A stretch of 64,000 nucleotides of DNA from Pseudomonadota bacterium (GTDB lineage Bacteria > Pseudomonadota > Alphaproteobacteria > Rhizobiales > Xanthobacteraceae): positions 505,426-569,425 of the forward strand of contig JBFLVM010000003.1 in NCBI GenBank assembly GCA_040758515.1, read 5' to 3'. This document shows positions 1 through 39,454 of the stretch, in pieces. The notes below the pieces were generated by a model. It did not search any database, was not told the DNA's origin, and saw nothing but the letters and a program-made list of their open reading frames with translations. Position 1 is the first letter of the stretch, and every line of letters begins with the position of its first letter. The translations under genes were made by a program, and so were the position numbers.

Positions 1-379
1 GCGCGCCTGTGACGCGCTTGCCGCGGACAATATCGGCGGACGCAAGCAACCAGCTTCCGTGACAGATCGCGGCCACCGGTTTGTCTGCATGTGCGTGCTG
101 AGCCACGATCGAAATCATGGACGGGCTTAGCCGCATAAGGTCGGGAGCATAACCGCCGGGTATGATGATAGCGTCGTAAAGCTCTTTTTCAGCTTCGGCT
201 GCGGCAATGTCTGCGTGGATGGATTGTCCGAGTTTCGACTTGTACTCTTTCTTCTCCGGGCCAATGACTACGACGCGCGCGCCCTCCTCGCGCATTCGAT
301 AGATCGGATACCAGACCTCGTGGTCGTTGTGGTTGTTCTCGATGAACATTGCGACGTGATTTCCCTTGCGGCTTGCCAT
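1..379 (-). CDS. PfpI/DJ-1 family (type 1 glutamine amidotransferase-like) protein, 3' end outside window; missing from ORF track
   Basis: Manual translation from ATG at 379: MASRKGNHVAMFIENNHNDHEVWYPIYRMREEGARVVVIG...YDAIIIPGGYAPDLMR...KPVAAICHGSWLLASADIVRGKRVTG. Has IPGG and the AAICHG nucleophile elbow; RBS GAGGGA upstream. Confidence 0.9.
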   Translation of the reverse strand, partial: MASRKGNHVAMFIENNHNDHEVWYPIYRMREEGARVVVIGPEKKEYKSKLGQSIHADIAAAEAEKELYDAIIIPGGYAPDLMRLSPSMISIVAQHAHADKPVAAICHGSWLLASADIVRGKRVTGA

Positions 380-414
380 TTTGTTTTCCCTCAATTCCGG
401 ATTTCGTTTAGCCA

Positions 415-1467
415 TCACAAATCGAGCACGAGAAGCGGAGACTTCGAACGCGAGCAGCAAACCGTCATTTCCGTTTCATGCTCTTGCGGTTCGAGGACAT
501 AGTCGCGGTGATCCGGCTCTCCTGAAAGGACGCGCGTGCGACACGTACCGCAGACGCCCAGCTCACATGCAGCCTCGACCTGAATGTCGTGCTCGCGCAG
601 AACCTGCAAAATGGTCTGGTCGCTCGGAATATCGAGGGTCATCCCGGATTTTGCCAGTTCGAGCTTGAACGCGGGCCCTAAACCTCCTTCGTGGTGTTCA
701 GCGGTCTTGTCGCCGGAAGCAACCAGCGCCGGATCGTTTGCCGACGGCGTGAAAAACTCACGATGCGTGTTGCCTGAAGGCCAATGCGAAGATGCCGACG
801 CCACGACGGTCATGAAGCCCGGAGGACCGCAGTAGTAGAGATGCGTTCCATCCTCAAAATTTTTCAGCGCGCCATTGATATCGAGACCTTTGCTGGAATC
901 GCCGCCATCCCAATGAACGACAACGCGGCCGCTATTTATGAGAGGGCGAAGGCGATCCAGGAATGCCGTGCGCTCCTTCGAACGCGTGCAATAGTGAAGC
1001 TGATACTCAGACCGATTGCGCTCGAGTTCGCAGATCATCGACATCATCGGCGTGATGCCGATACCGCCGGCAAGCAGCAGATGGCGCTTTGCATTTGGCC
1101 GCAAGGCGAAGTGATTCCGGGGACCGGAAATTGCTACTTCGCTGTTCGCCTGAAGGGTTTCGTGGATCGCCTTTGAACCGCCGCGACCGTTCGGCTCACG
1201 TTGAACGGCAAACGTGTATCGCCCACGATCCGCAGGATCACCACAAAGAGAGTACTGGCGCACACCAAGGCTTCCGCCGGGAACGTGCAGGTCGATGTGA
1301 CTTCCGGCTTCGAACTGCGGAAGATCGTTGCCGGTTGGATCGAAGACTTCAAACGCCTTTATGTCCTCGCCGTATTTCGTGACCGAACGAACTCGCAGAC
1401 GAAGCTCTTTCGCGGACGTCACGTTCGCCGGCTGCAATTCGGCTTCAGATTTGGCGGCGGCATTCAT
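415..1467 (-). CDS. PDR/VanB family oxidoreductase (flavin/NAD(P)H domains plus C-terminal 2Fe-2S)
   Basis: RQYSL, GGIGITP and YYCGP motifs; CELGVCGTC...CCSR plant-type 2Fe-2S motif; RBS GAGGAG. Confidence 0.93.
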   Translation of the reverse strand: MNAAAKSEAELQPANVTSAKELRLRVRSVTKYGEDIKAFEVFDPTGNDLPQFEAGSHIDLHVPGGSLGVRQYSLCGDPADRGRYTFAVQREPNGRGGSKAIHETLQANSEVAISGPRNHFALRPNAKRHLLLAGGIGITPMMSMICELERNRSEYQLHYCTRSKERTAFLDRLRPLINSGRVVVHWDGGDSSKGLDINGALKNFEDGTHLYYCGPPGFMTVVASASSHWPSGNTHREFFTPSANDPALVASGDKTAEHHEGGLGPAFKLELAKSGMTLDIPSDQTILQVLREHDIQVEAACELGVCGTCRTRVLSGEPDHRDYVLEPQEHETEMTVCCSRSKSPLLVLDL

Positions 1468-1523
1468 GGTCCGCTCCTCTCAGTTCAAAATTGCAAGCCA
1501 TCGCCGTTAGCGTTGACGGTCGG

Positions 1524-1727
1524 TCAGTCTGACTCTTCAACAGTGATGGCACTGACCGGACATCCCTCGGAGGCCATGCGAATAACGTCGATTGATTCGT
1601 GCGGCGGGTCGATCGGTTGCGCCTGTCCTTCGCTGTTGAGCGCGAATGCTTTTGGCGCAATGGCCGTGCAGATACGCGACCCAACGCACTTGTGATGATC
1701 GACGCTCGTCTTGATTGTCTTTCCCAT
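1524..1727 (-). CDS. Small ferredoxin, single-cluster (probably 3Fe-4S) P450-partner type
   Basis: MGKTIKTSVDHHKCVGSRICTAIAP...SEGCPVSAITVEE with CxxSxxC...CP. True start is ATG 1727, or GTG 1739 overlapping the P450 stop; the 122-aa ORF-track start is too long. Confidence 0.88.
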   Translation of the reverse strand: MGKTIKTSVDHHKCVGSRICTAIAPKAFALNSEGQAQPIDPPHESIDVIRMASEGCPVSAITVEESD

Positions 1728-1735
1728 CGTGACAC

Positions 1736-2974
1736 TCACTTGAACTTCACGGGCAGCGCCTTTAGCGCGCGGCCTCTGAGGATTGCATGGTACTCGAACG
1801 TATCCGCGGCGAGACGCATGCCGGGGAACCTCTGAGTCAGCGCAAGATAAGTTTCGTGCGCCTCGACGCGAGCCAATGGCGCGCCCAGGCAAATGTGAAT
1901 TCCCTGTCCGAACCCCAAATGCGGATTTGGACGCCGGCTGACATCGACCTGATGCGGGCAGCTGAACTTCGCCGAATCCTGATTCGCGGCCACGTTCACG
2001 AGAAGAACCAAGTCGTCCTTGCGGATCGTCTTTCCCCGAATCTCGACATCCTCGAGCGCGTAGCGAAGCATGCTCTTAATTGCGCCCTCGAGACGAACGA
2101 CCTCCTCAACCGCCAACGGAACGAGCGCCGGTTCTTTACACAGACGATCCCACTGATCCCGATGGCTCAGCAGCATGTGCAGACCGTTGGCCAGAAGATT
2201 CGTAGTCGTCTCGTGTCCAGAAAACAGAAGATTGGCGCAATGGACGATGATCTCGTCGTCGGAAAGACGGGCGCCCTTCCAATCCGCCTTGATCAAAGCT
2301 GAAATGTAGTCGTCCTGCGGATTCGCGCGTCGTTCCTTCACGCGCGGCTCCACGTAGCCGATGAGTCCTTTGATCCCATCGACACCCGACTGCCATCGCG
2401 CCGGATCGGTGCCGCCGCCAAAATGGTAGGTCAGCCAAAGGTCCGAGTATTTCTTGATGACCGTCCAGTCTTCATGCGGAAAGTCCAGAAAATCAAGGAT
2501 GACCTTGATCGGAAGCGGAAGCGTGAAATCCTTGATGAAGTCAATTTGGTCTTTGTTCTGCGACTCATCCAGCAGATCGTGGATGAACTTCCGAATTCTT
2601 AGGCGCCGCTTCTCGACCTGCGACGGCGTCCACACCTGATTCACGACCAGGCGAATATGGTCGTGCAATGGATTGTCCACGGCACTCAGCCAGTGAGGAT
2701 ATGTGTCGTAGATGACGCCGAACCGCTCTCTGTACGAGGCGCGGTCCTTCTCCGGCAGTTCTTTGACGTTGAACCCCAACTTGTCGGAAGAAAACAGATG
2801 CGGCTGCCGGCAAGCCCACACGACATCTTCATACTTCGTGATGATCCACATCTTCCTTTGTTCGTTCCAGTGGACCGGGTCGTTTTCCCGCAAAGGACCG
2901 AAGTAAAGTTCGGGATCTACCAACGCCGCCGGATCCAGAAGATCTGTCGGCTTTGACTGGACTGTCGTGTTCAT
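1736..2974 (-). CDS. Cytochrome P450
   Basis: I-helix LLFSGHETTT, K-helix EEVVR, heme loop FGQGIHICLG; 412 aa. Confidence 0.97.
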   Translation of the reverse strand: MNTTVQSKPTDLLDPAALVDPELYFGPLRENDPVHWNEQRKMWIITKYEDVVWACRQPHLFSSDKLGFNVKELPEKDRASYRERFGVIYDTYPHWLSAVDNPLHDHIRLVVNQVWTPSQVEKRRLRIRKFIHDLLDESQNKDQIDFIKDFTLPLPIKVILDFLDFPHEDWTVIKKYSDLWLTYHFGGGTDPARWQSGVDGIKGLIGYVEPRVKERRANPQDDYISALIKADWKGARLSDDEIIVHCANLLFSGHETTTNLLANGLHMLLSHRDQWDRLCKEPALVPLAVEEVVRLEGAIKSMLRYALEDVEIRGKTIRKDDLVLLVNVAANQDSAKFSCPHQVDVSRRPNPHLGFGQGIHICLGAPLARVEAHETYLALTQRFPGMRLAADTFEYHAILRGRALKALPVKFK

Positions 2975-3015
2975 GCTGGTTCCTCGATTAAATCCGCCTC
3001 AGCGAAACGCTGCGA

Positions 3016-3990
3016 CTACTGCGCTTCGTGAATGAGCGGGATCCATTTTTCGTATTCCGATTTAACCAATTGCTGGAGAGCCTGCGGCGAACGCTCGTCC
3101 GCCGGCGGCGCATCCAACCCAATGTCATTCATCTTCTTCACGAAGGCCTCATTGGCAAACGCCTTCTGAAGCGTTTCATTGACTTTGGCGACGATCGGCT
3201 GAGGCGTTCCCTTGGGGAAAAACAACCCTGTCCAGGCGTTCACAACCAGATGCGGCATTCCCGCCTCAGTCGATGTCGGAACGTTTGGCAAAATCGGAGT
3301 TCGCTTGGGCGAAAGAAGAACGACGGCTTTCATCTGATTCGATTTCACGAACGGGGCCGCAAGACTTGTCCAGTTGAAGACAGCGTCGATGCGATTGCCC
3401 ATCACATCGCGATCCGCCTCGATATCGCCGCGATAAGGAACCTGCGACGCATTGATGTTCGACTGCTTTTTGAAGAGCAGGAACGCCAGATGAGAAATGG
3501 ATCCGATTCCGGCGTGGCCGATCGTCAGCGGGCTTGTTTTGGACTTTGCAAGCGCGATCAAATCGTTCAGCGAATTGACGGGCGAATCCTTGTTCACGAG
3601 CAGGATTTCGGGCGAGTACGCGACCGTCATGACGGGAACGAAATCGGTCAGCGGATTGTACGGCAGTGTCTTGAATACGGCGGTGCTCGCGATTTGAGTT
3701 CCCAGATTGCCTATAAGGATTGTGTACCCGTCAGGCGTTGCCCGCGACACGCGCGTCGCACCGATCGTTCCGCCGGCGCCCGTGACATTCTCCACGACGA
3801 CTGGCTGTCCGATATTGTCGCGCAGCTGTTCGGCGACGAGGCGTGCAACGACGTCGACCGATCCTCCGGCAGCAAACGGCACGATGAGGCTGATTGGACG
3901 TGTCGGGTATGTGCTGTCAGCACTCGCAACGCCGATGTTTGCAGTGAGCAGCGTGGCAAGAAAACTTACAAGAAAAGCGATCCGCGGCAT
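3016..3990 (-). CDS. Bug/TctC family tripartite tricarboxylate transporter substrate-binding protein
   Basis: Signal peptide, YPTRPISLIVPFAAGGSVD, VVENVTGAGG, VPYRG; start moved to ATG 3990 (RBS GAGGGA). Confidence 0.92.
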   Translation of the reverse strand: MPRIAFLVSFLATLLTANIGVASADSTYPTRPISLIVPFAAGGSVDVVARLVAEQLRDNIGQPVVVENVTGAGGTIGATRVSRATPDGYTILIGNLGTQIASTAVFKTLPYNPLTDFVPVMTVAYSPEILLVNKDSPVNSLNDLIALAKSKTSPLTIGHAGIGSISHLAFLLFKKQSNINASQVPYRGDIEADRDVMGNRIDAVFNWTSLAAPFVKSNQMKAVVLLSPKRTPILPNVPTSTEAGMPHLVVNAWTGLFFPKGTPQPIVAKVNETLQKAFANEAFVKKMNDIGLDAPPADERSPQALQQLVKSEYEKWIPLIHEAQ

Positions 3991-4145
3991 TGTTTCCCTC
4001 CCTGAATTCGGAACCGACTCTTTGTTCGGTTTTGCAAGGCTGCGCCGCATCGCAACGTGCTTTTGCGCGCGCGAACGGCTGCCTTGTCGAGACGAATTTT
4101 AAGAGTCCATCGCAAGTAGGAGAAATACCGAATGAGTCCGAGGGT

Positions 4146-4160
4146 ATGCCTCGTTGGCAT
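4146..4160. promoter_or_regulatory. Putative LysR recognition site (ATGCC-N5-GGCAT, contains T-N11-A)
   Basis: Dyad in the divergent bug/lysR intergenic region, about 30 bp upstream of the lysR ATG. Confidence 0.5.
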
Positions 4161-4188
4161 GACCGATCGTTTTTGCTAGCGGTTACGG

Positions 4189-5127
4189 ATGGATATCCGA
4201 TCGCTTAGATATTTCATTGCGGCCGCAAACTTAAAGAGCATAAGTAAGGCGGCCGAACATCTTCATATCGCGCAGCCGGCCCTGAGTCGCCAACTCAGGA
4301 AGCTGGAGGCGGATCTCAAAGTTGAGCTCTTTCATCGTGACGCTCGCGGCGTTCGTCTAACGGACGCCGGCACTCTCCTTCTCGAAAAAGCCGAAAGCCT
4401 TATCAGGCAGTTCGAGCACATCGCAGAGGAAGTCCGCAGACAAAGCCGGAATCCGTCCGGTCACGTATCGGTCGCCCTTATTCCGTCAGTCGCTTCGTTC
4501 ATCGCTTTGCCCCTGATCGAACGAATGCGCGAACGACATCCGAAGATTTCACTGCGCATATCCGAAGGCCTTACAACGGCAATCGTAAGCGGGCTACTTG
4601 AACACAAGTTCGATTTTGGCCTGATCCCGGCGGAGCAAGGCGATGCCTCGTTGATAAGCATTCCCCTACTGATCGAGCCAATGTTTCTGATTGGGCCTGC
4701 CGACAAAGCGTCCACCGACAACAAGCCGCTTTCATTGCAGCAACTCTCTCAATACCCACTGATACTTCCCAGCCGCGGCAATACTCTGCGCGAGCAAATC
4801 GAGTCGGTCGCGAAGCGAAACGGCGTGGCGCTCGATGTGAGAGAAAGCGTCGATAGCGCGATTGTTACGAAGCAGCTGGTGATCGCCGGCCTCGGCTATA
4901 CGATTCACTGCTACAGCTTCGTTCATGCGGAAGTCACGCGGGGGCAGCTGTTCGTTCAGCCGCTCCGCAGTCAGGAACTCGTCCGACAATGGTCCCTTGC
5001 GCGGCCGCGCGACCATTCTCAATCCGAGGCCAGTTCGAAAGCTGCAAAGGTGCTGTTGGAGATTGCGACTGAGTTCTCACAACAGAAGGACTGGTACTTG
5101 CAGGTCAGCCGCAGGCAATCGCTTTAG
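4189..5127 (+). CDS. LysR family transcriptional regulator
   Basis: N-terminal HTH (LRYFIAAA...SISKAAEHLHIAQPALSRQLRKLE...LFHRDARGVRLTDAG); divergent from the P450 operon. Confidence 0.95.
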   Translation: MDIRSLRYFIAAANLKSISKAAEHLHIAQPALSRQLRKLEADLKVELFHRDARGVRLTDAGTLLLEKAESLIRQFEHIAEEVRRQSRNPSGHVSVALIPSVASFIALPLIERMRERHPKISLRISEGLTTAIVSGLLEHKFDFGLIPAEQGDASLISIPLLIEPMFLIGPADKASTDNKPLSLQQLSQYPLILPSRGNTLREQIESVAKRNGVALDVRESVDSAIVTKQLVIAGLGYTIHCYSFVHAEVTRGQLFVQPLRSQELVRQWSLARPRDHSQSEASSKAAKVLLEIATEFSQQKDWYLQVSRRQSL

Positions 5128-5206
5128 CGCCCTGTGCGGCCTCCCCCTTTTTAAGTCCTCGAATTCCGCTATCGTCTCGTCGCTGCCGCGACAGGAGATT
5201 TCAGGC

Positions 5207-5590
5207 ATGTTCAGCCACGTCATGATCGGATCGAACGATCTCAATGCGTCGAAAAAATTCTATGACGCAATTTTTTCATCGATGGGAGGAGATCCGGGAA
5301 CGCTCGATGTCCGGGGCCGGCTGGTCTACAGCAAGGACGGCCACCGGCTGATGATCACCAAGCCGATCAATGGAAAGAAAGCCATTCCCGCTAATGGCGG
5401 CACCATCGGATTTCATATGCAAAGTCCGGAAATGGCGAACGCCTGGCATTCGGCCGGCGTCGCAAATGGCGGGAGAAGCGTAGAGGACCCGCCGGGACGG
5501 CGCGAAAGAAACGGCGATCCGATTTATCTGGCGTACCTGCTCGACCCGGACGGGAATAAGCTCTGCGCCCGCTGCCCAGTCTCGTCGTGA
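5207..5590 (+). CDS. VOC family (glyoxalase/bleomycin-resistance-like) protein
   Basis: MFSHVMIGSNDL...FYDAIF...NGGTIGF...YLAYLLDPDGNKLC; RBS AGGAG before ATG 5207. Confidence 0.9.
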   Translation: MFSHVMIGSNDLNASKKFYDAIFSSMGGDPGTLDVRGRLVYSKDGHRLMITKPINGKKAIPANGGTIGFHMQSPEMANAWHSAGVANGGRSVEDPPGRRERNGDPIYLAYLLDPDGNKLCARCPVSS

Positions 5591-5827: not shown

Positions 5828-5903
5828 TGGTGGGCGCACAAGGATTCGAACCTTGGACCCGGTGATTAAGAGTCACCTGCTCTACCAACTGAGCTATGCG
5901 CCC
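5828..5903 (-). tRNA. tRNA-Lys(CTT)
   Basis: GGGCGCATAGCTCAGTTGGTAGAGCAGGTGACT-CTT-AATCACCGGGTCCAAGGTTCGAATCCTTGTGCGCCCACCA; 76 nt cloverleaf with encoded CCA. Confidence 0.97.
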
Positions 5904-12258: not shown

Positions 12259-13344
12259 CTATTCCCTGGTCTGCGGCTTCAACTGGCCGAAGCCGGGCGG
12301 GACCGGCGTATCGCCGCCGAAAATGCGCGCGATCATCATGGCGCCGATTTCCGGCCTGAAATGCGCGTAGTCCAGCCAGACGCCGGCCTTGTCGGTGATC
12401 GGCCCCGGCGAAGCGAAATCCCATATCTCGGTGATGCGGTTGATGCGCGCGGCGATGGCGTCGAGTTCGCCCGGCCGGTAGAGATTGATATTCGCGCGCT
12501 GCAACGGCGTCGTCGCCACCGTCAGCTTGATGCCGTGCTCGCGGCAAAGCTCGACAAACAGATAGATCAGCGCGAGCTGACGGTCGATGTCGGGACGGCT
12601 GGTGATCCAGTATTTGCGGAATTGCTCGCCGGGCTCGTCGCTCAACAACGATGCGATGCGGGCATGCGCCTCGCTGACGAACAGCGCCCCAAGACTGGGC
12701 GGCGCGACGCGCGGCAATGAATTCGCCTGGCGCTCGCGGCTGCCGGTGCCCTGCTCCAGCGATGTAAACGAAATGAATTTCGGATCGGGATTTTTCTCGC
12801 CTGACAGCGCGCCCTTGATGCCGTCGCGCCATGTCAGGAATTGCACGGCGGTGAGATAGCGCCACCAGAACCGCACCTTCGAGCCGCCGGTGACTTCCGG
12901 CGGCAGAAAGCAGTCGATGTTCACATTGGTCCATGCCGGTTTGCCGAGCAGATCGGTGTCCAGCATCAGGAACACCGATTTGATTTTCTCGCCGCGCTTG
13001 TCCTTGTCGCGCAGAATATATTCGAGCACCGGCAGATGATCGGAAATCAGCCCATACGGCACGGCCTGATCGTGCAGTCTGGTTGCGCCCATTGCCTTGG
13101 CAAGCTGCGCCTGATCGATGCTGTAGCCGCGCGACGACGAGAAGAACAACGCATCGACCTGACTTGCATTCTTCTGATAGTCGCGCACGCCGAGATAGCG
13201 GTAGTTCGGATGGCGGCGCGGGAATAACTCCGTGCCGAACACAGCCTCGGGATCGATCAGCACATTCGCCAGCGCCGTTCCCATAAACAGCGCGGCTGCG
13301 GCGATCATCAGTCCGATGGCAAATCTGCGCGGCGTCATCGTCAT
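12259..13344 (-). CDS. SGNH/DltD-like periplasmic partner of the MBOAT protein (putative O-acyltransferase)
   Basis: One N-terminal TM (ANVLIDP); block-I-like FSSSRG; C-terminal DYAH (DxxH); 4 bp downstream of the MBOAT gene. Confidence 0.6.
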   Translation of the reverse strand: MTMTPRRFAIGLMIAAAALFMGTALANVLIDPEAVFGTELFPRRHPNYRYLGVRDYQKNASQVDALFFSSSRGYSIDQAQLAKAMGATRLHDQAVPYGLISDHLPVLEYILRDKDKRGEKIKSVFLMLDTDLLGKPAWTNVNIDCFLPPEVTGGSKVRFWWRYLTAVQFLTWRDGIKGALSGEKNPDPKFISFTSLEQGTGSRERQANSLPRVAPPSLGALFVSEAHARIASLLSDEPGEQFRKYWITSRPDIDRQLALIYLFVELCREHGIKLTVATTPLQRANINLYRPGELDAIAARINRITEIWDFASPGPITDKAGVWLDYAHFRPEIGAMMIARIFGGDTPVPPGFGQLKPQTRE

Positions 13345-13348
13345 TCCA

Positions 13349-14866
13349 TCAGAACTGATAATAGAGAAATTCGGTGAAACTGTTCAGATTTGCGAACACC
13401 AGCGCGAACAGCACAGCCAGCAGCGCCAGCCGGATCGGCGTCGGCTGCCACGCGAACAGCCACGCCGAGCGCCGCCAGTTGGAATGCGGCTCGTTCTCGC
13501 GATAGTCCACCATTTCCATCGTGTCGGGAACGAACAGCGCAATCGCCAGCATGCCTGCGGTAATCAGCGAGGCGACCACGGTCCAGTGCGAGCCGAGCCA
13601 CCCCCGCACGAATGCCTCCGTCACGTAACCCTTGCTGATGATCCACGCGTCGGTGTTGACCGCGAGCGCAGCATCCGCCGGCGCGTGACCGAACCCGGCC
13701 ATCGCCTCGATCATGTGCCATGCGGTGGCGAAATTCGGCGCGCGGAAAAATGTCATGCCGACCGCGAACGTCATGAACGTCAGAAACCAGCCGATCAGTT
13801 TTCCGTACCACGCCGGGTCACGCTTGCCGGTGAGCGAGCGCCAGGCGTGATTGATCGTCAGCGCCACGCCGTGCAGCGCGCCCCAGGCGATGAAGGTCCA
13901 GTTTGCGCCGTGCCACAACCCGCCGAGCAGCATGGTCAGAAACAGATTGACCGAGCGGCGTATGGGGCCCGCCTCATTGCCGCCGAGCGGCACGTAAACG
14001 AAATCGCGCAGAAAGCGCGACAGCGTGATGTGCCAGCGCCGCCACAGATCGATGATGCTGGTCGAACGGAAAGGTGCGGCGAAATTCAGCGGCAGACGAA
14101 GGTTGAACAGAAGACCCAGTCCGACCGCCATGTCGGAATAGCCGGAGAAATCGAAATAGAGTTGCAGCGAATAGGCAATCGACGCGCCCCATGCGGCGGC
14201 GGCGGTGACGGGCACACCGGCGGCGGCCGCATCGAACACGAGGCCGACATGCGGCGCGAGACGGTCCGCGAGCAGCACTTTTTTCGTGAGACCCAGACAG
14301 AAGATCGTCAGACCCAGTGCGATATTGTTCCAGTCGGCGCGGTAGCGGATTTTGTCCGCAAGCTGCGGGCCGAGTTCGTTCCAGCGCACGATCGGGCCGG
14401 CGATCAGATGCGGAAAGAACGACACGAACATCGCATAGGTCGGCATGTGAAGCCGCGTCGGCCAGCGCGAGGTCTCGATCAGGAACGCGATCTGCACGAA
14501 GGTCGTGAACGACAGCGCCAGCGGCACGTCCGGCACGCCGGGGTTGCGGCCCTCGAAGATCGACAGCAGAAAATCGAAATATTTGAAATAGCCGAGCACC
14601 AGCAGATTGGCGGTGACGCCCGCGATCACCATGCGTCGCGCGCTGGCTTTGTCGGCCTGCTGGATTTTCTGCGCCAGCCAGAAGTTGAACAGAATGGATA
14701 ACACCGGGAGCACGACGAAGGGCGGCTTCCACCACGCATAGAAGCACAGCGACGAGATCGTCGTCATGATCGCGGCGGCGGCGAGGCTGCGGCGCGCCAC
14801 GAGAAAATGCAGAACGACGGCGAGCGGCAGAAAGACAAAAATGAATTCGGTGGAATTGAAAAGCAT
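13349..14866 (-). CDS. MBOAT family O-acyltransferase (AlgI/DltB-like)
   Basis: MLFNSTEF, FFPHLIAGPIVR, LYFDFSGYSDMAVG, WRRWHITLSRFLRD, GLWHGANWTF. Confidence 0.95.
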   Translation of the reverse strand: MLFNSTEFIFVFLPLAVVLHFLVARRSLAAAAIMTTISSLCFYAWWKPPFVVLPVLSILFNFWLAQKIQQADKASARRMVIAGVTANLLVLGYFKYFDFLLSIFEGRNPGVPDVPLALSFTTFVQIAFLIETSRWPTRLHMPTYAMFVSFFPHLIAGPIVRWNELGPQLADKIRYRADWNNIALGLTIFCLGLTKKVLLADRLAPHVGLVFDAAAAGVPVTAAAAWGASIAYSLQLYFDFSGYSDMAVGLGLLFNLRLPLNFAAPFRSTSIIDLWRRWHITLSRFLRDFVYVPLGGNEAGPIRRSVNLFLTMLLGGLWHGANWTFIAWGALHGVALTINHAWRSLTGKRDPAWYGKLIGWFLTFMTFAVGMTFFRAPNFATAWHMIEAMAGFGHAPADAALAVNTDAWIISKGYVTEAFVRGWLGSHWTVVASLITAGMLAIALFVPDTMEMVDYRENEPHSNWRRSAWLFAWQPTPIRLALLAVLFALVFANLNSFTEFLYYQF

Positions 14867-33993: not shown

Positions 33994-34962
33994 TCAGTTG
34001 GTTACAGGCTTCAGAACCGGAGTCCATTTCGCGATTTCGCTCGTGACCAACGCGCCCAATGCAGCCGGGGTGCGTTCCGCAGGCGACGGGATCACGCTGC
34101 CGAGTTCAAGCAGACGCTTGCGAACACCCTCATCGTCGAGTGCCTTGCTAAGCGCCGCGTTGAGCTTGGCGACGATCGGAGCCGGCGTGCCTTTCGGCGC
34201 GAAGATCGCGTTCCATGCCTGCGCCTGGAACGCAGGCAGGCCTGCTTCCTTCGTGGTCGGAACGTCAGGCAGCGACGGATTGCGCTCCGGCGTTGCGATT
34301 GCATAGGCCTTGATCGTGCCGCCCTGAATCTGCGGCACCGCGTTGACGATCTGGTCGCACATATAATCGACCTGTCCGCCGACCAGTGCGTTCATCGCGG
34401 GGCCCGTGCCGTTGAACGGCACGCCCGTCGGCTTGATGTCGAGAACCGCGTTGAGCAACTGACAGGATGTATAAGACACCGAACCGACGCCGGCATGCGC
34501 GACGTTCAGCTTGTCAGTGTTCGCCTTCACGTAAGCGACGAATTCCTTAAGATCCCTCGGCGGGAAATCCTTGCGGCCGAGGATCAGGATCGGCGTGCCG
34601 GCGATCAGCCCGACCGGCTCGAAGTCCTTCGAGGGATGATAGGCAAGGTTCGGATAGAGCGGCACGGACGCCGCGTGCGTGCCCATGTGGCCTGTTATGA
34701 GCGTGTAGCCATCCGGCGCGGCCTTCGCAGCACGGGTCGATGCCGTCGTGCCGCCTGCGCCGACAACGTTTTCGATGATGATCGGCTTGCCTAAAGTCTG
34801 CTCCATGTGACCCGACACGATACGTGCGATGACGTCGGTCGGACCGCCTGCCGCGAACGGCACGATCATCGTGATGTTGCGGGTTGGATAGTCCTGCGCC
34901 TGCGCGGAAGAAATTGCGGCAAGTGCCGTCAGCGCACCCGCCAGAAAAACTCGCCGTTTCAT
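33994..34962 (-). CDS. tctC: Tripartite tricarboxylate transporter substrate-binding protein
   Basis: YPTRNITMIVPFAAGGPTD, IENVVGAGG, PDVPTTKEAG. Confidence 0.92.
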   Translation of the reverse strand: MKRRVFLAGALTALAAISSAQAQDYPTRNITMIVPFAAGGPTDVIARIVSGHMEQTLGKPIIIENVVGAGGTTASTRAAKAAPDGYTLITGHMGTHAASVPLYPNLAYHPSKDFEPVGLIAGTPILILGRKDFPPRDLKEFVAYVKANTDKLNVAHAGVGSVSYTSCQLLNAVLDIKPTGVPFNGTGPAMNALVGGQVDYMCDQIVNAVPQIQGGTIKAYAIATPERNPSLPDVPTTKEAGLPAFQAQAWNAIFAPKGTPAPIVAKLNAALSKALDDEGVRKRLLELGSVIPSPAERTPAALGALVTSEIAKWTPVLKPVTN

Positions 34963-35308: not shown

Positions 35309-36823
35309 TCAGTTTTCCGATTCCACGAATACTTCATCGCGGCGCTTGCGCATGTTCGGAAGCAGCGAAACGACCAGCAACAGAATCGCAATCTGCAACA
35401 GAATGGCCGACAGCGGCCGCACGGTGAACACCGTCCAGTCGCCGCGCGAGATCAGCAACGCGCGCCGCAGATTTTCTTCCATCAGCGGACCGAGCACCAT
35501 GCCGAGCAGCAGCGGCGCAGGCTCAAAGTCGTGCTTCACCAGCCAATAGCCGAGAAGTCCGAATGCGCCCGCGAGCACGACGTCCATCGGAGCGTTATTG
35601 ATCGAGTAAATGCCGATGGCGCAGAAAATCACGATTGACGGGAACAGCAGCCGATACGGCACGCGCAGCAGCCGCACCCAGATGCCGACCAGCGGCAGAT
35701 TGATGACGAGCAGCATGAGATTGCCGATCCACATCGACGCGATCATGCCCCACACGAGATCGGGCTGCTTCTGCATCACCTGCGGTCCCGGCACGATGCC
35801 GTGAATGGTCATCGCGCCGACCATCAGCGCCATCACCGCATTCGGCGGAATGCCGAGCGTGAGCAACGGAATAAACGACGTTTGCGCGGCGGCGTTGTTG
35901 GCGCTTTCCGGCGCAGCCACGCCTTCGATCGCGCCGCGCCCGAAACGCGATGGGTCTTTCGCGATTTTTTTCTCGAAAGTGTAAGCGGCGAACGACGCGA
36001 TCACCGCGCCGCCACCGGGCAGAATGCCAAGAATCGAACCGAGCACCGTGCCGCGTGCGATCGCGGGGGCCGAGTCGATCATGTCCTTCCTGGTCGGCAT
36101 CAGGCCGGTGATCTTCTGCTGAACCAGATCGCGATCCATTTCCGCTCCCGCATCGAGATTGCGGATGATTTCGGCAAAACCGAACACGCCCATCGCGACG
36201 GTCGCAAAGCCGAGACCGTCGGCTAATTCAGGAACATTGAAGGACATGCGCGATGCGCCGGTCTCGATGTCGGACCCGACCATCGACAGCAAAAGGCCGA
36301 ACACGATCATCGCAATCGCCTTCAGAACGGACCCCTTGGCGAGAACAACCGCGAAGATAAGGCCGAGAACCATCAGCGAGAAATATTCGGCAGGTCCGAA
36401 CGCAAGAGCGAGTTTCGTCAGCGGCGCACCAAGTACGGCGATCAGGACCGTTGCGACACAGCCCGCGATGAATGAACCGATTGCCGCGATGGCCAGCGCC
36501 GGGCCGGCGCGGCCGCGCTTGGCCATCTGGAATCCGTCGAGCGTTGTCACGACGGATGTCGCTTCACCGGGAATATTGACGAGGATCGACGTCGTCGAAC
36601 CGCCGTACTGGGCGCCATAATAAATTCCGGCGAGCATGATGAGCGCGCCGACGGGAGGCAGCCCAAAGGTGATCGGCAGCAACATCGCAACGGTCGCGAT
36701 GGTGCCAATACCCGGCAGCACACCGACGAGCGTTCCGACGAGCGCGCCGACGAGACACAGCAAAAGATTGATCGGCGACATCGCGACAACGAAGCCGTGG
36801 GCAAGGTTTGCAAAGAGTTCCAT
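35309..36823 (-). CDS. tctA: Tripartite tricarboxylate transporter large permease
   Basis: GVLPGIG, YYGAQYGGS, NIPGE, APESANNA, LTLGIP. Confidence 0.95.
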   Translation of the reverse strand: MELFANLAHGFVVAMSPINLLLCLVGALVGTLVGVLPGIGTIATVAMLLPITFGLPPVGALIMLAGIYYGAQYGGSTTSILVNIPGEATSVVTTLDGFQMAKRGRAGPALAIAAIGSFIAGCVATVLIAVLGAPLTKLALAFGPAEYFSLMVLGLIFAVVLAKGSVLKAIAMIVFGLLLSMVGSDIETGASRMSFNVPELADGLGFATVAMGVFGFAEIIRNLDAGAEMDRDLVQQKITGLMPTRKDMIDSAPAIARGTVLGSILGILPGGGAVIASFAAYTFEKKIAKDPSRFGRGAIEGVAAPESANNAAAQTSFIPLLTLGIPPNAVMALMVGAMTIHGIVPGPQVMQKQPDLVWGMIASMWIGNLMLLVINLPLVGIWVRLLRVPYRLLFPSIVIFCAIGIYSINNAPMDVVLAGAFGLLGYWLVKHDFEPAPLLLGMVLGPLMEENLRRALLISRGDWTVFTVRPLSAILLQIAILLLVVSLLPNMRKRRDEVFVESEN

Positions 36824-38832: not shown

Positions 38833-38977
38833 GATGCTGAATAGAATGGCGGTTCCGCCGCGCCAACCTCCAATCACAGTTGCCGCATATGCATGAGAGG
38901 CAATTCCACCGGAATCGGTGCCGGACGGCCCGAAACCAGACCTTTTTTCGTTAGCTTTTGCGGCCTATATTGAGCGT

Positions 38978-39303
38978 GCCGGCTTGCCGGCTATGGAAAT
39001 AAATTGCCGTCGCAATAAACCATTCGGACCCGGGGGCAGCACCCGGCGCCTCCACCAAAGCCCGGACTTGCCGCCAGCATCTGGCGGGCTTCGGCGGGGG
39101 CGAAACAGGATCGACGAGGGCGTAAAGGGCGTGTTTTTCCCGGTATTGTTCCGCCGTTATCGGGCTATGCAATAGTTGCAAACGACAACTATGCTCCGGT
39201 TGCTCAGGCTGCGTAACGCAGTTTGAAAGACCAAGTCTAAAGTCCTGATGGATTAAGCCCCGTCAGGCGGGGTTCGGAGGCACCTGGCAACAGAAGCCTC
39301 CAC
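38978..39303 (+). ncRNA. ssrA: Circularly permuted two-piece tmRNA
   Basis: Acceptor piece ends CGCCTCCACCA at 39057; 38-nt intervening hairpin; coding piece begins GGGGGCG at 39096 (7-bp stem with G3-U70); tag frame 39178-39216; -10 TATATT at 38966. Outer ends approximate. Confidence 0.95.
39178..39216 (+). other. tmRNA tag reading frame (A)ANDNYAPVAQAA*
   Basis: GCA AAC GAC AAC TAT GCT CCG GTT GCT CAG GCT GCG TAA. Confidence 0.93.
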
Positions 39304-39454
39304 TTTCATCTCCGCTGGGAAACTGCCTGATCTGCACCCTCGCCTGCTGACCTTGCCGGTCCGGCGGGATACCATCGCCCAAACGGCGCGAGTCGCGACT
39401 TTGAGGCTGCGCAGCAATTTCATTCGGCAGAATTGGCCTGCCCGAGGACAGCGA

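Follow-up and report, generated by a model that had tools for sequence, protein, structure and literature searches.

A stretch of 64,000 nucleotides (hereafter the window; C3:505426-569425, where C3 is the source contig JBFLVM010000003.1) from the 3.5-Mb genome of a member of the Xanthobacteraceae (Pseudomonadota, Alphaproteobacteria) begins with a cluster of genes built around a cytochrome P450 monooxygenase. This cluster is probably a horizontally acquired, LysR-controlled operon for the uptake and oxidation of an imported compound. From the comparison of sequences and gene neighborhoods, its predicted functional unit is a divergent LysR gene together with the genes for a Bug/TctC periplasmic binding protein, the P450, a ferredoxin, and a reductase of the phthalate dioxygenase reductase (PDR) type, among which P450-ferredoxin-PDR is a conserved core cassette. 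An initial annotation of the window had proposed an accessory module in which a compound is taken up through a dedicated binding protein and oxidized by the P450, with a LysR gene in divergent orientation, and this proposal is sustained by the recurrence of these genes in other loci and by a palindrome common to those that bear LysR.

Gene Content of the Cluster

Gene identities were obtained from the list of open reading frames and a Pfam scan of the window, and NCBIfam models served for subfamily and equivalog tests. By the open reading frames and Pfam, all seven genes named in the initial annotation are present, intact, and located where it had placed them. The features are as follows:

<1-379, minus strand: PfpI/YhbO-type DJ-1 family gene, cut by the window edge (DJ-1_PfpI, E 8e-33)
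415-1467, minus strand: PDR-type reductase (Pfam FAD_binding_6, NAD_binding_1, and C-terminal Fer2)
1524-1727, minus strand: ferredoxin, 67 amino acids (Pfam Fer4_13, Fer4_15)
1736-2974, minus strand: cytochrome P450 monooxygenase, 412 amino acids (Pfam p450)
3016-3990 (open frame to 4050), minus strand: orphan Bug/TctC periplasmic binding protein, 324 amino acids (TctC, E 7.5e-59)
4146-4160, no strand: candidate LysR operator in the divergent promoter region, palindrome ATGCCTCGTTGGCAT (T-N11-A)
4189-5127, plus strand: LysR-type transcriptional regulator, divergent from the operon (Pfam HTH_1, LysR_substrate)
5207-5590, plus strand: small VOC protein (glyoxalase/bleomycin-resistance fold), 127 amino acids, downstream of LysR (Pfam Glyoxalase, 27.6 bits)
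5828-5903, minus strand: tRNA-Lys(CTT) (ARAGORN)

On the minus strand, the genes follow one another in the order Bug/TctC, P450, ferredoxin, PDR-type reductase, and PfpI, with intergenic gaps of 41, 8, 56, and 35 nucleotides, respectively, and LysR and VOC occupy the plus strand. The catalytic motifs are intact in all five minus-strand genes. The full PfpI gene (180 amino acids, C3:505262-505804) extends 163 nucleotides past the left edge of the window, and its product carries the Cys-His motif AICHG.

Conservation of the Cassette in Orthologous Loci

Ten orthologous P450 loci (L008, L009, and L011-L018) were compared with the cluster. An orthologue of the P450 occurs in only one of 24 genomes of the genus (G014, 77% identity) and in none of 400 genomes of the family, and a large protein collection contains about 33 P450 clusters at 61-86% identity, most of which derive from soil metagenomes and one of which is labelled Pseudolabrys, below which there is a gap and then a set of sequences at 44-47% identity. 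Moreover, a plasmid search returned no orthologue of the P450, the best plasmid-borne P450 being 37.6% identical.

The P450, ferredoxin, and PDR genes are adjacent in L008, L009, L012, L013, L014, L015, and L016. Taken separately, PDR orthologues (57-65% identity) adjoin the P450 in nine loci, and the ferredoxin follows the P450 in eight of the ten other orthologous loci and also in the outgroup at 44-47% identity. The outgroup P450s keep the ferredoxin without a PDR-type reductase and, therefore, the P450-ferredoxin pair is ancestral and the reductase was recruited in this clade. In L011, the P450 and the ferredoxin are retained and the reductase is reduced to residues 237-350, which form the C-terminal part with the 2Fe-2S domain. 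This remnant (L011:11450-11791) lies directly after the ferredoxin on a contig with many fragmented genes, and may be an assembly artefact.

The genes around the core recur to different extents. Bug orthologues (62-66% identity) stand directly upstream of the P450 in L011, L012, and L015, and LysR orthologues (70% and 61% identity) stand beside the cassette in L011 and L012, respectively. PfpI recurs only in L008 and L009 (72-74% identity), where an SsuA-like ABC importer takes the place of Bug; in L009, the scan of flanking genes also revealed a GntR regulator in place of LysR and an adjoining M20 amidohydrolase gene. Since the loci lacking Bug have an SsuA-like importer, the import of a polar substrate would be a constant feature. 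A search with the SsuA-like binding protein of G014 found no relative in the PDB; its gene is split into two frames (L009:12363-12977 and 13026-13367), which may reflect a frameshift or a pseudogene. Conservation of the neighborhood of seven genes delimited by the initial annotation is thus partial, given that Bug-P450-ferredoxin-PDR and LysR recur, whereas PfpI is found in two of the ten orthologous loci and VOC in none of them, so that the seven genes do not hold together as one module.

In the clade at 63-68% identity, the cassette is accompanied by genes for an SDR, a Zn-dependent alcohol dehydrogenase, an IclR regulator, TctC, and AcoAB-like thiamine pyrophosphate enzymes, neighbors that suggest a hydroxylation followed by dehydrogenation and C-C cleavage. 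Two loci of the 63% clade (L017:486-4217 and L018:4748-5889) present a P450-PDR-SDR arrangement, without ferredoxin, flanked by insertion sequence (IS) elements (rve, Transposase_mut), which is consistent with transfer of the whole cassette in one piece.

The P450 and Its Predicted Redox Partners

The translation of the P450 contains the haem-thiolate motif FGQGIHICLG (FxxGxxxCxG), the ExxR motif EEVVR, and the acid-alcohol pair of the I-helix in SGHETT, and these motif columns are invariant across an alignment of 43 sequences. The protein matches PF00067 with 77.9 bits (cut-off 22.8), and its AlphaFold2 model has a mean pLDDT of 91.8. The best fold matches are BioI (CYP107H1) with acyl-ACP, CYP125, CYP109, and CYP142, with TM-scores of 0.82-0.89, and the same P450s are the best matches by sequence, with E-values of 1e-65 to 1e-50; however, identity to them is only 28-33% and they belong to other genomic contexts. 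CYP107H1 (BioI), CYP109, and CYP125/CYP142 act on fatty acyl chains, steroids, and sterol side chains. A P450 is customarily assigned to a CYP family when it shares more than 40% amino-acid identity with a member, and this P450 falls below that line against the CYP107, CYP109, CYP125, CYP142, and CYP116 structures, although it may already carry a CYP name. The initial annotation had regarded identity below 40% to named CYPs as the sign of a new family; the highest identity to any solved P450 is 33%. No NCBIfam equivalog model recognized the protein.

The ferredoxin displays the motif CxxSxxC...CP, which indicates a [3Fe-4S] cluster, and such a cluster is predicted here. The reductase belongs to the PDR family by its domain order, in which a flavin-binding domain and a NAD-binding domain precede a C-terminal plant-type [2Fe-2S] domain with the motif CX4CX2C...C, read as CELGVCGTC...C. 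In the PDB, it is closest to phthalate dioxygenase reductase itself (2pia, E 7e-74, residues 22-350) and, next, to the reductase domains of CYP116B fusion proteins (6kbh, 6laa). Nevertheless, the system is not of the self-sufficient class VII (CYP116B-type), since the P450 and the reductase are encoded by separate genes with the ferredoxin gene between them.

Predicted Substrate Uptake and the Candidate LysR Operator

The likely start of the Bug gene is position 3990, with the ribosome-binding site AGGGAGGG upstream and a typical signal peptide downstream. The protein scores 199.9 bits against PF03401 and is a Bug/TctC family member by its signal peptide and its two clamp loops, PFAAGGSVD (PFAAGGxxD) and GIGSISH (GxGSxxH). 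In solved Bug proteins, the loops PFAAGGxxD and GxGSxxH bind carboxylate. The PDB matches of Bug are 6hke, BugD, AdpC, and TphC, and the ligands of the matched TctC-type proteins comprise malate, aspartate, adipate, glutamate, and terephthalate. As the genome contains 12 TctC genes and five TctA genes in total, Bug would be a typical orphan that uses a shared membrane unit. Further TctA and TctC genes are found in the window at 35504-36766 (C3:540929-542191) and 34012-34830.

When the region between LysR and Bug was aligned with its counterpart in L011, the palindrome ATGCC-N5-GGCAT became apparent, which has a single match in the 64-kb window (4146-4160), with 0.09 expected by chance. Among 30 fetched loci, it is found elsewhere only at L011:8750-8764, L012:8803-8817, and L012:13502-13516, an additional match listed in L001 being the window's own site. 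The first palindrome of each locus lies 162-176 nucleotides upstream of the Bug start in all three LysR-bearing loci, including this one, and the second palindrome of L012 lies 30 nucleotides upstream of the LysR gene, which is displaced there to the far side of the operon. The regulator is of the LysR type by its HTH_1 and LysR_substrate domains and by the T-N11-A dyad in the divergent promoter region. Thus, being common to the three LysR-bearing loci, the palindrome is likely the LysR operator, and there is good comparative evidence that LysR would control both the Bug-P450-ferredoxin-PDR operon and its own gene.

Proposed Mechanism and Points against It

In the proposed mechanism, Bug would capture an anionic compound in the periplasm, most likely one bearing a carboxylate, and pass it for import to a TctBA membrane unit, the nearest of the five being encoded about 6 kb downstream in the same genomic island. 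In the cytoplasm, the P450 would insert one oxygen atom into the compound, leading to hydroxylation, or to dealkylation if the attacked carbon is next to O or N. Electrons would flow from NAD(P)H through the flavin and the [2Fe-2S] cluster of the PDR-type reductase to the [3Fe-4S] ferredoxin and, finally, to the haem. Moreover, LysR would bind ATGCC-N5-GGCAT and activate the operon when the substrate or the product is present.

Several observations weigh against this scheme. L017 and L018 have the P450 and the reductase without the ferredoxin; thus, the P450 may receive electrons straight from the reductase, and a chain of three steps may not be required. In addition, the SsuA-like importers of sister loci hint weakly at sulfonates, not carboxylates (39-61 bits, cut-off 163.5). 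The best structural relatives of the P450 (BioI, CYP109, CYP125, CYP142) are only about 30% identical to it and do not point to a substrate. Moreover, promoter and terminator scans gave no more sites than chance and did not mark where the operon ends.

Comparison with Characterized Systems

The closest described system seems to be ohpR-ohpT-ohpA of Cupriavidus pinatubonensis JMP134, the 2-hydroxyphenylacetate 5-hydroxylase system induced by 2-hydroxyphenylacetate (PMC8449657), and the cluster analyzed here may, by analogy, follow the same logic. Both have a divergent regulator, a Bug/TctC gene closely preceding the P450 gene, and a PDR-type flavin/[2Fe-2S] module, the source of electrons for the P450 in the ohp system, whose expression can be induced and whose substrate is an organic acid (PMC8449657). 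Thus, the initial view that this combination did not correspond to a described pathway does not stand, as ohpR/ohpT/ohpA constitutes a characterized precedent (PMC8449657). However, OhpA is a CYP116B P450 with the reductase as part of the same polypeptide, and a separate ferredoxin is lacking, whereas three separate redox genes are present here, and the regulator is of the IclR type in the ohp system (PMC8449657) and of the LysR type here. Furthermore, the P450 of this cluster is not CYP116-like, its best matches being CYP109, CYP107, CYP125, and CYP142.

Class I three-component P450 systems, such as actinobacterial ones with a [3Fe-4S] ferredoxin, also combine a soluble P450 with an adjacent Fer4_13-type ferredoxin. 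Nevertheless, their reductase is a Pyr_redox_2 FAD enzyme, whereas the one found here is of the PDR type with its own [2Fe-2S] cluster, and in two sister loci the ferredoxin has been lost. A search of the open literature, far from exhaustive, yielded no report of a set formed by a stand-alone PDR, a [3Fe-4S] ferredoxin, and a P450, and nothing specific on a P450 with PfpI or TctC in one operon except the ohp system. It is conceivable, as a more tentative proposal, that the cassette represents an undescribed arrangement of P450 redox partners, with PDR replacing the usual FAD reductase, in a new CYP family acting on an imported anionic compound. The latter might contain an amide linkage, as N-acyl amino acids and N-acyl taurines do, because Bug or SsuA-like importers, PfpI, and M20 amidohydrolase or amidase genes are recurrent neighbors.

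The tRNA-Lys Island

The cluster forms the right-hand end of an island of 41.5 kb with a low GC content (C3:469710-511328). The 3' 47 nucleotides of tRNA-Lys (5828-5874) are repeated in the same orientation at C3:469710-469756, with 45 of 47 bases identical, and GC content is 0.52-0.58 over C3:469.4-511.2 kb and 0.60-0.63 on both sides (0.55 for the island against 0.60 for the genome). Insertion at the 3' end of a tRNA gene, direct repeats, low GC, variable content, and genes for accessory metabolism are all shared with tRNA-linked islands; unlike typical ones, this island has no tyrosine-recombinase integrase. No match to the integrase family PF00589, gene or pseudogene, was found on contig C3; therefore, the island does not qualify as an active integrative element. 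Mobility genes were likewise not seen in it, and it appears to be fixed in place.

To look for an empty site, the two flanks were joined and searched against 40 genomes of the genus. None of them showed a clean empty site; the tRNA gene and the right flank are mostly conserved and the left flank is variable. In G010, the closest relative, both flanks are present (86-90% nucleotide identity) but enclose unrelated DNA, and in G013 the 47-bp repeat lies about 119 kb from the tRNA gene. The tRNA-Lys gene is an insertion hotspot in the genus, and the island described here is lineage-specific.

The initial annotation had pointed to the sequence left of the window, and there the co-oriented run does continue past PfpI. 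On the same strand lie the genes for choline sulfatase, TctC-TctB-TctA, and SoxC (L006:13000-19672; C3:498470-505097). Choline sulfatase (TIGR03417, 590 bits, cut-off 433) and the sulfite dehydrogenase SoxC (TIGR04555, 615 bits, cut-off 420) both score as equivalogs, and a SoxD-like c-type cytochrome with the motif CAACH, missed by simple calling of open reading frames, is encoded at about C3:498470-499060. The pairing of a sulfate-ester hydrolase with a sulfite dehydrogenase is an odd combination. The island also holds a ROK regulator, a methyltransferase, an IclR regulator, and an NMT1-type ABC system.

Another P450 cluster, unrelated to the first, is located at L006:950-7811 (C3:486375-493236). 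Its P450 is 28% identical to the first one and scores 499 bits on a SolI-like model, below the cut-off of that model, and its neighbors encode a divergent FAD ferredoxin reductase, an alpha/beta hydrolase, a Zn-dependent alcohol dehydrogenase, and a GlcF-like CCG iron-sulfur protein. In its left half (L005:4444-18866; C3:469869-484291), the island contains genes for DUF2478, a PhsA/DmsABC-like molybdoenzyme complex, OsmC, and a TauE sulfite exporter, as well as for an NMT1 binding protein, a molybdopterin oxidoreductase of 706 amino acids, and two HcyBio-like proteins. The catalytic subunit of the PhsA/DmsABC-like complex (1015 amino acids) matched no equivalog model, and the molybdopterin enzymes of the island number two. 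Organosulfur and accessory oxidation chemistry is the theme of the island. Elsewhere in the window, a tmRNA gene of the permuted, two-piece form, whose tag is ANDNYAPVAQAA, is found at 38962-39307; tmRNAs of this form are typical of Alphaproteobacteria.

Alternative Explanations

The seven genes could alternatively form one pathway in which a dealkylating P450 releases an aldehyde that PfpI, as a glyoxalase-III-like enzyme, and VOC remove, in line with the built-in aldehyde handling put forward by the initial annotation. PfpI lies 35 nucleotides downstream of PDR, its orthologues in L008 and L009 (72-74%) share an operon with the cassette, and its best PDB matches are Arabidopsis DJ-1D (AtDJ-1D), known as a glyoxalase III, and PH1704. 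It also passes the PfpI/YhbO subfamily model TIGR01382 (164 bits, cut-off 139). However, it remains below the NCBIfam equivalog cut-offs for deglycase PfpI (139 versus 330 bits) and DJ-1 glyoxalase III (64 versus 131 bits), it is absent from L011-L018, and equally similar genes (70-73% identity) stand alone, without a P450, in Acidocella-like contigs, within a very large and continuous family (5306 hits). VOC, with 4qb5 as the best PDB match (E 3e-37), is missing from all ten orthologous loci, has a core-genome paralogue on another contig (C1:993593), and its homologues in the genus (52-64% identity) never adjoin tRNA-Lys. The two genes that would support aldehyde removal are, thus, the least conserved parts of the cluster, and their weak linkage to the cassette speaks against built-in aldehyde handling, which makes this pathway unlikely. 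PfpI would rather be a lineage-specific passenger or helper, an occasional companion of the cassette, and VOC is a bystander at the island edge, unrelated to the conserved unit.

The surroundings of the operon could also be taken to mean that it is an arm of an organosulfur pathway of the island, together with choline sulfatase, TctCBA, and SoxCD, carrying out, for instance, a hydroxylation beside a sulfonate or sulfate ester that releases sulfite or sulfate. The co-oriented run past PfpI into choline sulfatase, TctCBA, SoxC, and the SoxD-like cytochrome would accord with this, as would the TauE sulfite exporter, the NMT1/SsuA-type binding proteins, HcyBio, and the PhsA/DMSO-reductase-like complex of the island, and the use of SsuA-family importers by sister loci. 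Nevertheless, none of the ten orthologous P450 loci contains sulfatase or Sox genes, PfpI and the sulfatase are 164 nucleotides apart, a gap that includes a weak hairpin, choline sulfatase releases sulfate and not sulfite, and the SsuA-family scores are far below the cut-off; as cooperation with the sulfatase and Sox genes is drawn only from adjacency in one genome, such a role seems doubtful. It is still less probable that the P450 is not catabolic, being instead a biosynthetic tailoring enzyme or a fortuitous, silent remnant in a decaying island. The loss of the island integrase and the decay of sister loci (the truncated PDR of L011, the split binding-protein gene of G014, and the IS-flanked L017 and L018) are in its favor, whereas all five genes are intact here with their catalytic motifs, the periplasmic binding protein and the substrate-type regulator argue for an external compound, and no synthase, nonribosomal peptide synthetase, polyketide synthase, or terpene genes lie nearby.

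Two further candidates were discarded. Demethylation of glycine betaine or choline came into consideration through the nearby choline sulfatase and GbcB/DmmA-like hits of the reductase; however, these hits are generic and far below the cut-offs, and the cassette is not associated with choline genes in any other locus. A gamma-glutamylation route (Ipu-like) was rejected as there is no glutamine-synthetase-like gene.

Implications

Unless its substrate is found, the LysR-controlled uptake-and-oxidation operon, considered probable here, would be one among many uncharacterized accessory oxidation operons, with no bearing on any long-standing open question. The palindrome common to the LysR-bearing loci offers a ready inducer screen by means of a LysR reporter. 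If the substrate were found, the set formed by the PDR-type reductase and the [3Fe-4S] ferredoxin would constitute a compact, native group of redox partners, possibly useful in biocatalysis, and a function would be assigned to a small, mobile clade of P450s scattered through soil Alphaproteobacteria.

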